Positions 1 to 3,520 of a stretch of 4,462 nucleotides of DNA are shown piece after piece. Source of the DNA: a virus (taxonomy: Duplodnaviria; Heunggongvirae; Uroviricota; Caudoviricetes); IMG/VR virus record IMGVR_UViG_2778261594_000004, positions 1 to 4,462 of that record. One strand, written 5' to 3'. The notes under the pieces were generated by a model. That model had not been told where the DNA came from, made no database searches, and was given only the letters and a program-made list of their open reading frames with translations. Positions within the stretch are counted from its first letter, which is position 1; each line of letters begins with the position of its first letter. Both the position numbers and the translations under genes were made by a program.

Positions 1-214
1 CAGCCATACTTACCGCCGCGCCATTTCGCGGATTGCCACAACCGGAAGCGCACGATCGAATTAAATTTAACGACGACATATACAGAGAGACTAACTTCGC
101 CGTGCGCTTTCGTGTTATGCCCTGACTTTTCAGGGATATGTTCTTTCAGTAAACTGTCAGTGCCGGATTCTTATCCGTGTCCGGCGCACGTGCTCTACCT
201 CACCCGTGAATAAA

Positions 215-601
215 TTAATGATTAATTGATATTTTGTTGTTTGATTCAACTTTCCCATCGGATGTGTGATGCTTTAAATCACAGGAGTTAATACTGCTTG
301 CTGTAAAATGATTTTCAAGGGGAGCTATTCGAATCCCTTTCTTTTTCATTAACAAGCCAAATCCTTTATTAATGATGTCCATTAATTCCAGAAAGTATTT
401 TTCATGTAAATCCTGTTTATCAGAGAGCTGCTTCTCTTCGTACAGCCCGATAAAAGCTCGGCGTACGTTACCGGATATATTATCGATGGTTTCTTTTTCT
501 ACGGTACTCAGGTCAAGAGTGGCCAGTTGAGAACGAACTATATTCGCAGCCATTTCCTGGAATGGTAGTGGTAAATCTTTAAATTCCATCGTCAACCTCA
601 T
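215..601 (-). CDS. Hypothetical protein, 124-128 aa, AT-rich accessory gene downstream of cI; function not recognisable
   Basis: Uninterrupted 128-codon ORF in DNA that is only about 25-38% GC in three hand-counted 60-nt stretches (241-420), where stop codons are frequent, so coding is likely. Two in-frame ATG starts: 601..599, which overlaps the TGA stop of the upstream small ORF as TGATG, and 589..587, which has a GAGG Shine-Dalgarno 6 nt upstream. Predicted protein is hydrophilic and K/E-rich with no obvious transmembrane segment. No motif I recognise; not N-like (no Arg-rich N-terminus). Confidence 0.7.
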   Translation of the reverse strand: MRLTMEFKDLPLPFQEMAANIVRSQLATLDLSTVEKETIDNISGNVRRAFIGLYEEKQLSDKQDLHEKYFLELMDIINKGFGLLMKKKGIRIAPLENHFTASSINSCDLKHHTSDGKVESNNKISINH

Positions 602-753
602 CAGTCAGTGTTTCTGGTTAACCAGCGACGCGCGCCAGCTTCAGTTTTAAACGTTTTGCTTCTGGTATACGTCATCGCGGTAAACGTGCCGTCCTGGTTG
701 GGAAACACGCCGCATACCAGAGATTCGTTGTTGCCAAGATTGAGCGTATCCAT
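601..753 (-). CDS. Small hypothetical protein, 50 aa (MDTLNLGNNESLVCGVFPNQDGTFTAMTYTRSKTFKTEAGARRWLTRNTD), first gene of the accessory cassette
   Basis: Hand translation of the minus strand: ATG at 753..751 with GAGG 5 nt upstream, in-frame TAG upstream, TGA stop at 603..601 sharing one base with the ATG of the 128-aa ORF. Missing from the supplied ORF track, apparently because it is short. About 57% GC in a sampled stretch (661-720). Competes with the plus-strand ORF 608..793, which has a GTG start and no SD. Confidence 0.45.
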   Translation of the reverse strand: MDTLNLGNNESLVCGVFPNQDGTFTAMTYTRSKTFKTEAGARRWLTRNTD

Positions 754-928
754 GTTGACCTCATTTACCCTTAACGCCGGGTCGCGGAACTAAAAACCTG
801 CTGCGCTGTTATACAAAGTGTTCCCGCCGTCATGTTCATACGCCTCGGGCTGGCTACTTAACCCCTTGCCACTGCCGGGTAACTCGAAGTATTGCCCTGC
901 ATTCTGTGAAGCGGGGTGGGTTGTAATG

Positions 929-957
929 AATATAAGAATATTTAGTTTTGCCGTCAA
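929..957 (-). promoter_or_regulatory. Putative sigma70 promoter for the accessory cassette, reading leftward
   Basis: Minus-strand -35 TTGACG (957..952), exact 17-nt spacer, -10 TATATT (934..929); predicted start near 922. Overlapped and flanked by two copies of the TGAATATAA-containing repeat element. Confidence 0.5.
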
Positions 958-976
958 GTTGAATATAAATATTTTT

Positions 977-1003
977 AAGGTAAAAGGCCGGCAAAGCCGA
1001 CCT
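977..1003 (-). terminator. Putative rho-independent terminator downstream of cI
   Basis: On the minus-strand RNA, AGGUCGGC-UUU-GCCGGCCU forms an 8-bp GC-rich stem with one G-U pair (1003..985), followed by UUUACCUU. Lies 24 nt after the cI stop. The 3-nt loop and interrupted U-tract make it only moderately convincing. Confidence 0.45.
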
Positions 1004-1026: not shown

Positions 1027-1671
1027 CTAGAGGCTGAACTGAACACCTTTTGCTACAGCAACGATGTTACATTCCGGTGTAAGTAAGGATGATTGATAGC
1101 GTGGGTTAAGGGGGGCTAAGTACACGAGCTTTCCATCAATAACTAATTTTTTTATAGTCATGGATGGTTCGTTTGTGAGTGGATCTGGGACTATTACTGC
1201 GACGATGCTACCATTTTTATATTTTTCGCCAGGCCTCATGATCACTGTGGCTCCAACTGGAATGCTTGGGGACCCTGATGGATTGTGCATAGTATCATCA
1301 GGCATTGAAACGGCAAAATCTCCCTCCTTGACATCAAAGAATGTGGTGATCCTGTCGACATTTCCCATAGTTTTCTCTCCTTTTAATATTAGGAAAGAAA
1401 TCGCTTCTCCCCAAGAAAGGTATGGGATTTGGGTACCTGGATTTTTCTGCACAAGGGATGATTCAGGTGATGATACTCCATACAGGAGATAGGACTCAGT
1501 AGTGCCTAGTGCTAGGGCTAATTTACTAAGAGCTTTGCTACCTGGTTCGTTTAGATCTTTCTCCCAGTATCCTATTGTTACCCCAGTTACGCCAGAAAGC
1601 TTGCCAAGTTCAACTTGGGTCAGACCTTTGTCTTTTCTGAGTTTCTTAAGCCTAATGCCAAGGCTTTCCAT
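1027..1671 (-). CDS. cI: Phage repressor, lambda cI-like (N-terminal XRE-type HTH, C-terminal S24/LexA-like autopeptidase domain)
   Basis: 214-aa ORF with GGGAG SD 6 nt upstream of ATG 1671..1669. The C-terminal 90 aa aligns by eye with lambda cI: AVSM vs GNSM (catalytic Ser), PSIPVGATVIMRPGE vs PSFPDGMLILVDPEQ, TIKKL vs TFKKL (catalytic Lys), LAPLNPRYQ vs LQPLNPQYP, PECNIVAVAKGV vs CNESCSVVGKV. N-terminus has a typical HTH (LTQVELGKLSGVTGVTIGYWEKD). Confidence 0.93.
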   Translation of the reverse strand: MESLGIRLKKLRKDKGLTQVELGKLSGVTGVTIGYWEKDLNEPGSKALSKLALALGTTESYLLYGVSSPESSLVQKNPGTQIPYLSWGEAISFLILKGEKTMGNVDRITTFFDVKEGDFAVSMPDDTMHNPSGSPSIPVGATVIMRPGEKYKNGSIVAVIVPDPLTNEPSMTIKKLVIDGKLVYLAPLNPRYQSSLLTPECNIVAVAKGVQFSL

Positions 1672-1770: not shown

Positions 1771-1998
1771 ATGCGAGTTGATGAACTTGTCCAGTTTTTT
1801 GGTTCTGTCCAAAGAGTCGCTGATTTTTATGGGGTAACCCGAGAAGCTATATACATGTGGCGTAAGCGTCCCGGCGAAATAGTTCCCAAGGGGAGGGCTG
1901 CTGAAGCAGTTGCATACTCCAAGGGAAAATTATCGTTGAACCCAGAACTTTACAAAAAGAAGGATAACACCTCGAACGAAAGGAAAAATGATTCATGA
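1771..1998 (+). CDS. Cro-like transcriptional regulator (YdaS/Cro family HTH)
   Basis: 75-aa ORF with AAGGAGG SD 5 nt upstream. Divergent from the repressor. The pattern ELxxFFGSxxxVAxxYGVTREAIYMW resembles the YdaS/Cro family as I remember it. Stop overlaps the next gene start (ATGA). Confidence 0.85.
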   Translation: MRVDELVQFFGSVQRVADFYGVTREAIYMWRKRPGEIVPKGRAAEAVAYSKGKLSLNPELYKKKDNTSNERKNDS

Positions 1999-2420
1999 AA
2001 ATCAAACATGAACACATCCGCATGGCGATGAATGCCTGGGCATATCCTGACGGTGAGAAAGTTCCCGCAGCTGAAATAGCCCGGACTTATTTTGAGCTGG
2101 GGATGACGTTCCCGGAACTGTACGACGACAGCCATCCGGAAGCCCTGGCTCGTAATACCCAGAAAATTTTCCGCTGGGTGGAGAAGGACACGTCTGATGC
2201 TGTTGAAAAAATTCAGGCGCTGTTACCGGCGATCGAAAAGGCGATGCCGCCTTTGCTGGTGGCCCGTATGCGCAGTCACAGTTCTGAATATTACCGGGAG
2301 ATCGTCGAACGACGGGATCGGCTGGTGAAAGATGTGGATGATTTTGTCGCTGTAGCGATCGCCTGGGGCACCCTGACTAACAGTGGTGGTCAGCCTGGTA
2401 ATGCAGTTGTTGTGCATTGA
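1995..2420 (+). CDS. CII-like regulator, YdaT-family protein
   Basis: 141-aa ORF beginning MKIKHEHI, translationally coupled to cro-like gene by ATGA overlap at 1995-1998. Position after cro and my recollection of Rac-prophage YdaT (similar length and N-terminus) support the call; family assignment is from memory, not a search. Confidence 0.75.
   Translation: MKIKHEHIRMAMNAWAYPDGEKVPAAEIARTYFELGMTFPELYDDSHPEALARNTQKIFRWVEKDTSDAVEKIQALLPAIEKAMPPLLVARMRSHSSEYYREIVERRDRLVKDVDDFVAVAIAWGTLTNSGGQPGNAVVVH
2255..2262 (+). other. Chi site (5'-GCTGGTGG-3')
   Basis: Exact octamer at 2255-2262 inside the YdaT-like gene. Presence is certain; functional relevance is not. Confidence 0.6.
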
Positions 2421-2488
2421 CCAACAATATTTATACCGGATTTCTTTCGGAAGTTCGTGGGTAAAGTTCGGTATCAGAAGAGGTGAGT

Positions 2489-3520
2489 ATGGCTAATGCC
2501 TGGCTCAGATTGTGGCATGACATGCCAAATGACCCCAAGTGGCGAACGATTGCCAGGGTATCAGGACAGCCAATCGCAACAGTGATGGCAGTGTATATCC
2601 ATCTTCTGGTGAGCGCGTCACGAAATGTCACGACATGTCACGGCGTGTCACTACGTGGTCACATTGATGTCACGACGGAAGATTTAGCAAGTGCGCTTGA
2701 TGTGACGGAAGACGTAATTGATTCAATTTTGCATGCAATGCAGGGGCGGGTTCTGGATGGTGACCTTATTTCCGGATGGGAAAAACGTCAGGTGCTGAAA
2801 GAGGACAATGGTAACGTTTCGCAAACGGCAAAATCCCCGGCAGAGCGCAAGAGAGCGCAGCGGGAGCGGGAAAAGCTGCGGAAACATAATGCTGATTGTC
2901 ACGATGAGTCACGACGTGTCACGCATCTGTCACGACAAGTCACGACAGATAAAGATACAGATACAGAATTAAACCCCACACATAACGCGCGCGAGAGTAT
3001 TCCGACCAGTGAGTCGAATGGTGCGCCGTTGCAGACAGCCGAACCTGAATACCTGGACGGCCTGAGCGAACCGATCGGGAAATTTTCGATGACTACTGTC
3101 TGGCAGCCGTCGCCGGATTTTCGACAACGGGCAGCAGTGTGGGGTATGGCTCTGCCTGAGCCGGAATTTACACCTGCAGAGCTTGCCGCATTCCGGGATT
3201 ACTGGATGGCGGAGGGGAAGGTTTTCACGCAGGTTCAGTGGGAGCAGAAATTTGCCCGCCACGTGCAGCACGTCAGGGCACAGGTAAAACCAGTCAGCAA
3301 GGGGGGAAGTCATGCAGCATCAGGTGGCACGGCATCACGGGCAGTTCAGGAAATCCGGGCAGCACGCGAACAGTGGGAACGTGACAACGGATTTATCAGC
3401 AACGGAAACGGCCTGGAAGCTGTGGGAGCTTATGGGGGAGGTGTATTCGAACCGCTGGACTCAGAAGAACGGGGCCGCACCTTCGAAGCTCTGGATTGCC
3501 CAGATTGGTGCGATGACTGA
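2489..3520 (+). CDS. Phage replication initiator (replisome-organiser-like N-terminal domain, DnaT-like C-terminal region), lambda O functional analogue
   Basis: ORF track starts at GTG 2483; ATG 2489 is more likely (AGAGG 5 nt upstream). N-terminus AWLRLWHDMPNDPKWRTIARV fits the phage replisome-organiser pattern; C-terminal FTPAELAAFRDYWMAEGKVFTQVQWEQKFARHV resembles DnaT-type domains (from memory). Contains iteron arrays internally, as lambda O contains ori. The last ~70 codons (3312-3520) are low-complexity and overlapped by the P-like gene in another frame, so the true 3' end is uncertain. Confidence 0.85.
   Translation: MANAWLRLWHDMPNDPKWRTIARVSGQPIATVMAVYIHLLVSASRNVTTCHGVSLRGHIDVTTEDLASALDVTEDVIDSILHAMQGRVLDGDLISGWEKRQVLKEDNGNVSQTAKSPAERKRAQREREKLRKHNADCHDESRRVTHLSRQVTTDKDTDTELNPTHNARESIPTSESNGAPLQTAEPEYLDGLSEPIGKFSMTTVWQPSPDFRQRAAVWGMALPEPEFTPAELAAFRDYWMAEGKVFTQVQWEQKFARHVQHVRAQVKPVSKGGSHAASGGTASRAVQEIRAAREQWERDNGFISNGNGLEAVGAYGGGVFEPLDSEERGRTFEALDCPDWCDD
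2617..2676 (+). repeat. Iteron array 1: six direct GTCAC(G) repeats at 10-11-bp spacing (putative ori initiator-binding sites)
   Basis: GTCAC units begin at 2617, 2627, 2637, 2647, 2658 and 2669, spaced 10,10,10,11,11 bp, i.e. one helical turn. Core TGTCACG. Confidence 0.6.
2898..2946 (+). repeat. Iteron array 2: five direct GTCACG(A) repeats at 10-11-bp spacing, followed by an AT-rich stretch
   Basis: GTCACG units begin at 2898, 2908, 2918, 2929 and 2939, spaced 10,10,11,10 bp. Immediately followed by 2947-2973 (agataaagatacagatacagaattaaa, about 23% GC), a candidate unwinding element. Confidence 0.6.

Follow-up and report, generated by a model that had tools for sequence, protein, structure and literature searches.

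A probable early-left operon of the dicBF type

In the DNA analysed here, a stretch of 4,462 nucleotides to which we refer as the window, we recognise the immunity and replication region of a lambdoid prophage of E. coli that resembles Qin and Rac. Matches to Pfam and PHROG profiles identify a LexA-like cI repressor of 214 aa with HTH_3 and Peptidase_S24 domains (1671..1027), Cro (1771..1998), a YdaT/CII-like protein (1995..2420), an O-like initiator with a DnaT domain (2483..3520) and, downstream of the initiator, P followed by a DUF1627 protein. The minus strand carries the two small genes with which this work is concerned: a ydfA/ydaF-like gene of the DUF1391 family that encodes 50 aa (753..601), and a gene of 124 aa (589..215, with its stop codon at 217..215) that belongs to PHROG 6937 and that we name the MEFKDLP family after its first residues.

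A PL-like early-left promoter, the putative equivalent of dicBp, lies on the minus strand at 957..929, with the -35 hexamer TTGACG at 957..952 and the -10 hexamer TATATT ending at 929; in a promoter consensus scan it scored 10 matches out of 12 with a spacer of 17 nt. The site is inside A+T-rich, operator-like repeats (OL, 929..977) made up of repeat families D1-D3 and inverted repeats I1, I2 and I5, copies of which recur between cI and cro at 1688-1706 and 1738-1758 (OR). This placement, together with the consensus match, points to a leftward promoter that is controlled by the repressor. The divergent cI/cro pair, with its operators repeated at the leftward promoter, is the arrangement of a dicBF-type operon. 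Homology to prophages of other immunity types stops at 921-940. A likely intrinsic terminator of the cI transcript was recognised by reading the minus strand at 983..1003 (GGTCGGC-TTT-GCCGGCC and then TTTTACCTT); a simple terminator scan of the window did not report it. In related prophages, PaaA2-ParE pairs are located between the repressor gene and the leftward promoter.

Between the promoter and ydfA, the early-left transcript has a 5' leader (754..922, minus strand) that is conserved and non-coding and that includes the ydfA Shine-Dalgarno sequence GAGGT at 762..758. The leader is 83-93% identical in 18 loci and is found also in prophages that lack ydfA (homology 764-923). An ORF at 957..793 with a match to PHROG 19140 was a candidate for a leader peptide but was discarded: it starts within the -35 hexamer, and the indels that distinguish its homologues are not multiples of three, so it is not conserved as a coding sequence. 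An Rfam search of the whole window at E <= 1 returned no RNA family.

RefSeq loci with 95-98% identity to window positions 1-930 have the gene order DUF1391, a hypothetical protein of 124 aa, dicB, DUF1482, exonuclease and integrase. In L001, which is 98% identical to the window over that range, dicB lies about 310 nt past the left end of the window; dicF and dicB are present in L001 and in most related loci, in each case outside the window, and dicF is annotated in phage Tritos. The ydfA gene comes first behind the PL-like promoter, beside the repressor, and it has the same position in L001-L003, L005-L015 and L031-L036. In Qin, a polycistronic transcript starts upstream of ydfA, and dicBp is PL-like and repressed by DicA (PMC5069750, PMC10448788; the latter for the promoter itself). 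The operon of the window resembles the K-12 Qin dicBF operon in its location beside repressor and cro, its PL-like promoter, its first gene and, as seen in L001, the presence of dicB and DUF1482/ydfD downstream. It differs from it in four respects: ydfB and ydfC are missing, the ydfA product is of 50 aa and ends in ...TRNTD instead of ...ERNSGE, the slot before dicF holds a 124-aa gene that is not listed in K-12 Qin, and the repressor is the LexA-like S24 protein of 214 aa. By analogy, the early-left promoter would drive a polycistronic transcript consisting of a 170-nt leader, ydfA, the 124-aa gene and then dicF/dicB beyond the window.

The ydfA gene and the start codon of its neighbour

The 50-aa ORF is an intact DUF1391 gene of the YdfA/YdaF family. 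Its product matches Pfam PF07151 with an E-value of 4e-29 and a score of 100.4 bits (cut-off 27.3) over profile positions 1-47 of 48; it also matches PHROG 751, and RefSeq names it "DUF1391 family protein" in the locus with 98% identity across window 1-930. None of the 13 alleles examined has a disrupted frame. An earlier note on this DNA, made from the sequence alone, had raised the possibility that the small ORF is a remnant; a profile score of 100 bits against a cut-off of 27 and an unbroken frame in every allele dispose of that idea. Differences among alleles are distributed over codon positions 1:2:3 as 14:10:33 in ydfA, as 27:31:85 in the N-terminal domain of the 124-aa gene and as 29:16:54 in its C-terminal part, a pattern that suggests that both frames evolve as coding sequence.

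Read on the minus strand, positions 603 to 599 are T(603)G(602)A(601)T(600)G(599). The pentamer is therefore present as the earlier note had described it, with the ydfA stop codon (TGA, 603..601) sharing a nucleotide with an ATG (601..599). The frame that this ATG opens extends to 215 and has a length of 128 aa, not the 124 aa that had been attributed to it; 124 aa is the length of the ORF from a second in-frame ATG at 589, which lies 11 nt past the ydfA stop. Between ATG 601 and ATG 589 the minus strand reads TGATGAGGTTGACGATGG. A Shine-Dalgarno sequence for ATG 589, GAGGT, occupies 599..595 on the same strand, its GAGG (599..596) being separated from the start codon by 6 nt, and its first G is the G of the ATG in TGATG.

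On all of the comparative evidence, which is in agreement throughout, the true start of the larger gene is ATG 589 and its product has 124 aa. All 124 positions of the PHROG 6937 profile find their counterparts in residues 5-128 of the 128-aa ORF (1.7e-76), and so the profile matches the 124-aa protein from end to end. PGAP annotates a protein of 124 aa in the RefSeq locus, beginning 11 nt past the ydfA stop. Nearly all of the 227 homologues are of 124-126 aa and begin with MEFKDLP, and in an exhaustive representative search the matches begin at residue 1 (MEFKDLP) in query and subject alike. The extension MRLT that would result from initiation at ATG 601 was found in no full-length homologue among the 227, in none of 38 cluster representatives and in no profile. 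Nothing resembling a Shine-Dalgarno sequence precedes ATG 601, and GAGGT is at the optimal distance from ATG 589. One class of E. coli genomes matches window positions 215..589 only, at 95-97% identity, with the homology ending exactly at the ATG (H67-H70).

Comparison among 30 loci of the 45 nt that precede the MEFKDLP start points to the same codon. In 21 of them the gene follows ydfC and the leader ends in ...CGTTAATAGCTAACCAACGAGGCTAATA (also given as ...AACGAGGCTAATA) directly before the ATG; these leaders contain neither TGATG nor any upstream ATG. The window-type leader, ACTGACTGATGAGGYTGACG directly before the ATG, occurs in eight loci as well as in the window. GAGG-N6-ATG is kept in both of these unrelated leader types. 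An in-frame TGATG is found in the window, L001, L012-15 and L033-35, and AUG 601 is in frame in every locus where the gene is linked to the 50-aa form of ydfA save one. The exception is L011, where an insertion of 8 nt places the ATG of TGATG 20 nt upstream and out of frame (MRLTI and then a stop codon) and changes the spacing to GAGG-N14-ATG while a 122-aa ORF remains intact. In L002 a window-type leader follows a ydfC-like gene that stops, in another frame, at the first TGA of ACTGACTGATG; this locus also has the sole substitution seen in the four extra codons, TTG to CTG, which is synonymous. The overlap is thus absent from the commonest context, out of frame in one locus and formed with a different stop codon in another, and the proposal that it couples the two genes as a start/stop overlap is not supported. 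A further suggestion, that ATG 589 with its GAGG could produce the larger protein independently, has held up well, ATG 589 being the conserved start.

The origin of the pentamer can be understood by reference to the ribosome-binding site of ydfA itself. This site, GGGTAAATGAGGTCAAC directly before the ATG, has the same ATGAGGT motif (764..758), with its ATG out of frame, and this sharing assigns the ATG of TGATG to a Shine-Dalgarno context: it is simply the front of an AUGAGGU motif and no conserved start codon. Where the Shine-Dalgarno sequence abuts the ydfA stop, the resulting UGA-UGAGGU would hold an in-frame AUG by chance, four codons before the true start, so that TGATG would be a by-product of a tight 11-nt intercistronic spacer and not a functional overlap. 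The word is not rare in the window, where it occurs 17 times on the two strands compared with 11.4 +/- 3.3 expected from shuffles. Tight packing of co-transcribed phage genes is seen likewise at the cro/YdaT-like ATGA (1995-1998) and the O/P ATGACTGA (3513-3520). These two are genuine start/stop overlaps, in which the overlapping ATG is the annotated downstream start, and in that respect they differ from 603..599.

Composition and mosaic structure

The GC content of ydfA is 50.7% and that of the 124-aa gene is 36.8%, with values at third codon positions of 60% and 35.5%, respectively. The contrast in GC content is weaker than the earlier note had stated: 51% against 37%, the small ORF having been credited with about 57%. 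A likelihood change-point scan was performed over 215-760 and over 215-925, with significance assessed against 500 shuffles. The best single change-point was nt 421 in both ranges (GC 0.31 versus 0.47-0.50), and it was reached by 3 of 500 shuffles in the shorter range and by none of 500 in the longer. A residual step near the gene boundary, placed at 622 (0.43 versus 0.525), was not significant, being reached by 323 of 500 shuffles. Within the 124-aa gene, codons 1-57 (nt 589..419) have a GC content of 43% and the remainder 31%. Since the only significant change-point is at 421, the sharp composition boundary is inside the downstream gene and not, as had been claimed, almost exactly at the junction.

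When window positions 215-760 were compared by megablast with 5,426 complete E. coli genomes, the matches fell into discrete breakpoint classes. In 455 genomes the match was full length (at least 80% coverage), with the 50-aa ydfA followed directly by the 124-aa gene (H51-H61), and a few genomes of this class have ydfB/ydfC between the two (e.g. H65). The 215-589 class has the 124-aa gene alone, after ydfC (L036). A class matching 414/430-760, which includes EPEC E2348/69 and L035, has the 50-aa ydfA, the leader and the N-terminal domain, joined to another C-terminus; in the 546/570-760 class, which includes O157:H7 and L033/L034, only the first codons of the downstream gene remain behind the same ydfA and leader. 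The match of ~598-760 consists of the 50-aa ydfA only, with TAA as its stop codon, followed by unrelated DNA with an opposite-strand gene of 171 aa (L031/L032). Finally, 622-760 corresponds to the canonical 51-aa ydfA followed by ydfB (H103-H110). Overall, homology breaks at 923-940 (the promoter), ~764 (before ydfA), 622, 598-607, 589, 546-570 and 414-430.

One of these joints lies in the last codons of ydfA (622..614, minus strand), as indicated by blastn breakpoints at 622 and 613 against L002 and by the tail classes of the protein. Homology to the canonical 51-aa ydfA, whose product ends in ...WLERNSGE, stops at 622, and the sequence from 613 onwards belongs to the leader that accompanies the downstream gene. 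The tail of the 50-aa class reads ...RRWLTRNTD in the window (class pattern ...WL(T/A)RN(T/S)D), and the class of tail correlates perfectly with what follows: in related prophages the 51-aa ydfA is followed by ydfB-ydfC, and the 50-aa ydfA by a protein of 124, 126, 122, 133 or 212 aa or by an unrelated stretch with an opposite-strand gene. Downstream of the slot, towards dicF/dicB, a block at 3..208 is 85-88% identical in prophages that have other contents in the slot. This tracking of downstream content by the ydfA tail suggests that the segment from ~622 to ~570, comprising the ydfA tail, the spacer and the first codons (MEFKDLP), behaves as a conserved linker. The modules that recombination would exchange around it are the ydfA body, the N-terminal domain and, above all, the C-terminal half of the protein encoded downstream, for which the joint is at ~421.

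The earlier note had envisaged a variable cargo slot behind the small ORF, with its joint at TGATG. Comparison of the junction among related prophages bears out the exchangeable gene, with at least five alternatives behind the 50-aa ydfA, but puts the joints at 622, 570-546 and 421, with TGATG accounting for one class only. The boundary at nt 421 is, as read from the alignments, a domain-level mosaic joint, and it is this joint that would give rise to the GC step; a GC step here marks recombination between domains within a gene and not a gene boundary. A simple deletion of ydfB-ydfC from an ancestor like L002 is a plausible origin for the junction, with an insertion as the alternative direction of the event. 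In the modular theory of lambdoid phages, joints occur at or near the borders of genes and domains, at conserved linker sequences. Sharp breakpoints, conserved flanks and alternating contents are likewise the features of module exchange in lambdoid mosaics, and compared with these there is nothing unusual at this locus, where one joint is intragenic, at a domain border, and visible as a step in GC. What has been found is mosaicism of the ordinary lambdoid kind, in an operon that was already known.

Translation at the junction and the relationship of the two genes

We assign a probability of roughly 80% to the following reading as a whole: the two genes are members of an early-left operon, the larger is started at AUG 589, TGATG is incidental, the downstream gene has been shaped by module exchange, and the functions proposed for the products are tentative. 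The 124-aa gene would then be translated from AUG 589 by means of the GAGGU Shine-Dalgarno sequence at 599..595. Ribosomes that terminate on ydfA may plausibly re-initiate at AUG 589. The gene would not need such an event, since with the same GAGG-N6-AUG it works 22 nt past ydfC and in prophages that have no ydfA. That independence also weighs against a stronger version in which the start is at 589 and yet translation depends on that of ydfA, through re-initiation or 70S scanning across the 11-nt spacer, making the junction a true coupling device. Terminating ribosomes are able to re-initiate at nearby SD-AUG sites, the 11-nt spacer with its Shine-Dalgarno sequence immediately after the stop is identical in at least three combinations with the tail of the 50-aa ydfA, and spacers in this operon are short as a rule (1 nt for ydfA-ydfB and 22 nt for ydfC-orfX). 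However, folding of the junction RNA in four leader types gave no structure more stable than those of shuffles (z = +1.37), and so nothing suggests a masked Shine-Dalgarno sequence that needs upstream translation. A dependence on ydfA translation is possible, and we consider it unlikely. We hold it to be very improbable that ATG 601 is the functional start, from which strict termination-reinitiation coupling would yield a 128-aa protein in a fixed proportion to the ydfA product. TGATG is in frame in the window and the eight loci named above, and the single substitution in the extra codons leaves the amino acid unchanged, as this proposal would wish; against it are the missing Shine-Dalgarno sequence, the absence of the four extra codons from all homologues and profiles, the 21 ydfC-linked leaders without an upstream ATG, the frameshift in L011 and the PGAP call of 124 aa. 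AUG 601 may at most serve as a minor start in addition to AUG 589.

Even less can be said for a type II toxin-antitoxin system or some other obligate two-protein module, an interpretation to which the earlier note had been attracted by the overlap. The genes are small, adjacent and co-directional with a very short spacer, and the sole hint from the proteins is a PADLOC match of the 50-aa product to AbiEi at E = 0.04, which is not significant. Each gene is found without the other, however: ydfA can be followed by ydfB-ydfC or by unrelated DNA, and some prophages (L016-L024, L028-L030) have the MEFKDLP gene but no ydfA. PADLOC gave no significant match for either protein or for two relatives, and searches of Pfam, PADLOC and PDB sequences detected no significant toxin or DNA-binding antitoxin domain in either; no match to a defence family was obtained with Pfam or PADLOC. 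The two genes lie behind a repressor-controlled early promoter rather than one of their own, and bona fide PaaA2-ParE pairs occupy a different slot in related prophages. In K-12, induction of an operon that lacked dicF and dicB was not toxic (PMC5069750), a result that also counts, indirectly, against a toxin, with the difference that the K-12 operon does not contain the 124-aa gene. The least credible of the alternatives makes the plus-strand ORF at 608..793 the real gene and takes the 50-aa frame for a remnant or artefact. The plus-strand ORF is open in most alleles and it shares third codon positions with ydfA, for which reason the codon-position test cannot part the two frames; frame integrity and conservation of the start were used in its place. 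ORF 608..793 matches nothing in Pfam or PHROG, the 51-aa ydfA alleles lack its GTG start and it has an internal stop in L012-15, as opposed to the DUF1391 frame with its high profile score and its integrity in all alleles. We conclude that ydfA and the 124-aa gene are, as their distribution suggests, ordinary neighbours that are shuffled independently and not a coupled or toxin-antitoxin pair. The observation of TGATG is real yet incidental. A stop/start overlap read from raw sequence is no evidence of coupling or of a toxin-antitoxin pair, and in this instance the true start, as established by comparison with related loci, lies 12 nt downstream of the ATG in the overlap.

The MEFKDLP family

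A by-product of this analysis is the recognition of a modular, uncharacterised family of small proteins encoded next to DicF/DicB in many prophages of pathogenic E. coli, and for students of prophage accessory genes it offers a modest lead. Residues 1-57 of the 124-aa protein (MEFKDLP...LYEEK; 589..419 on the minus strand, GC 0.43) form an N-terminal domain, delimited by alignments, the representative search and partial PHROG matches, that is nearly invariant and common to proteins of ~86-212 aa with unrelated C-terminal halves. In contrast to PHROG 6937, PHROGs 1363, 2151 and 9419 match only residues 5-57/68 of the 128-aa ORF (about 55-64 N-terminal residues); none of the four has been assigned a function. 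The remainder of the gene (418..215, minus strand) is an A+T-rich, exchangeable C-terminal module with a GC content of 0.31, bounded by the change-point at 421 and the megablast classes that end at 414/430. Its counterparts in the proteins of 124, 133, 122 and 212 aa are of unrelated types, truncated versions of the 124 type are found in proteins of 106 and 109 aa, and L035 and L011 have other C-terminal halves after the same N-terminal domain. The N-terminal domain itself exists as two allelic types that are combined with different C-termini: type 2 is joined to a C-terminus of the 124 type in P0080 and to the 212-aa type in O157:H7.

A low-confidence AlphaFold2 model of the 124-aa protein, built with 31 homologues, has a pLDDT of 59.5 and consists of helices at 8-23, 32-55 and 60-83 followed by a disordered tail. 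A Foldseek search of the PDB with this model gave a best E of 1.8 and no usable fold assignment, and a PDB sequence search gave chance-level matches only (E 0.11-0.8). Pfam searches with the alternative C-terminal modules and the neighbouring alternative cargo gave none above threshold. A profile search with the N-domain alignment recovered only further Escherichia hypothetical proteins and fragments, none of which brought a new domain partner or a name.

Operon position and domain architecture are the sole guides to function, and the assignments that follow are of low confidence. Both proteins would be small accessory proteins made early after derepression, in the manner of DicB, DicF, Kil and YdfD. 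In the 124-aa protein the conserved helical N-terminal domain may serve as a common interaction or oligomerisation module, with the swappable C-terminal part providing specificity. Extended to the whole family, this would describe a small, polymorphic, Escherichia-restricted group in which a helical N-terminal domain of ~57 aa, of two types, is combined with at least 5-6 unrelated C-terminal modules, the former for docking or oligomerisation and the latter as interchangeable effector or specificity parts; we regard this proposal as speculative and rather doubtful. If it is true, a role in host takeover, superinfection exclusion or counter-defence becomes possible, and the segment made up of the ydfA tail, the Shine-Dalgarno sequence and the first codons would be a recombination linker for the swapping of cassettes. 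The family is tiny: at 50% identity it forms 38 clusters in a set of 1.8 billion proteins, nearly all of these clusters matching from residue 1 over 50-65 aa. It is confined to prophages of the Escherichia group and phages like PPompW and the Stx2a-converting phages.

Mosaic structure around the leftward promoter

The loci most similar to the window across ydfA and the 124-aa gene (98% in the related prophage locus L001) lose their homology to it where the promoter has its -10 box, at about position 930, and the interval 921-940 is a further clean mosaic joint in the window. The cI gene, operators and cro of the window belong to a different immunity type from those loci; at 85%, this type recurs in the related locus L002 and in the 214-aa repressors of L018 and L019. 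In related prophages the space separating the repressor gene from the leftward promoter, a slot comparable to that of rexAB in lambda, holds a toxin-antitoxin pair, PaaA2-ParE (1585-2063 in loci L012-L015 and 1491-1962 in L028). In the window, nothing but a terminator-like hairpin (983-1003) occupies this slot.

The leader of about 170 nt that separates the PL-like promoter from ydfA (754-923, minus strand) is 83-93% conserved among prophages with differing immunity regions and is kept even in prophages that do not have ydfA. Indels in the leader are not multiples of three, and it is therefore non-coding; it may act in processing, antitermination or Rho control. The ORF at 957..793, which matches PHROG 19140, looks like an annotation artefact, as do the extended 78-80-aa 'ydfA' calls in some records. 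In the phage record ON470583 (hit H26) the ydfA homologue (window 604-753) seems to carry the name 'head-DNA stabilization protein D'. This is probably a mis-annotation because its sole visible basis is a match to head decoration proteins (PDB 1td0/1td3) at the level of chance (E = 0.42).

The MEFKDLP family and its 3' neighbours

Residues 1-57 of the 124-aa protein (419-589, minus strand) make up a conserved N-terminal domain of two allelic types in loci L005-L036. The C-terminal modules joined to this domain are of at least five unrelated kinds, and the resulting proteins are about 86-212 aa long. This family is confined to prophages and phages of the Escherichia group, and Pfam has no entry for it. 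In many related loci the MEFKDLP gene is abutted or overlapped at its 3' end by an annotated opposite-strand ORF, a putative convergent gene (L002, 3244-3465; L033, 696-905; L035, 1021-1299; L031, 875-1390). These ORFs are 69-171 aa in length, their size varies with the C-terminal module, and they have no match in Pfam. The segment is missing from the window, since position 208 joins 215 almost directly.

Replication genes

At other places in the window there are genuine overlaps of a stop with a start codon: between cro and the YdaT-like gene (ATGA, 1995-1998) and between O and P (ATGACTGA, 3513-3520). The P start at 3513 matches the RefSeq annotation of L001; the 220-aa ORF from 3312 is over-extended. 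Within the O-like gene lie eight copies of GTCACGAC-type repeats, spaced mostly by 10 nt, in two clusters (2627-2676 and 2898-2946); by analogy with lambda ori, these are probably origin iterons.
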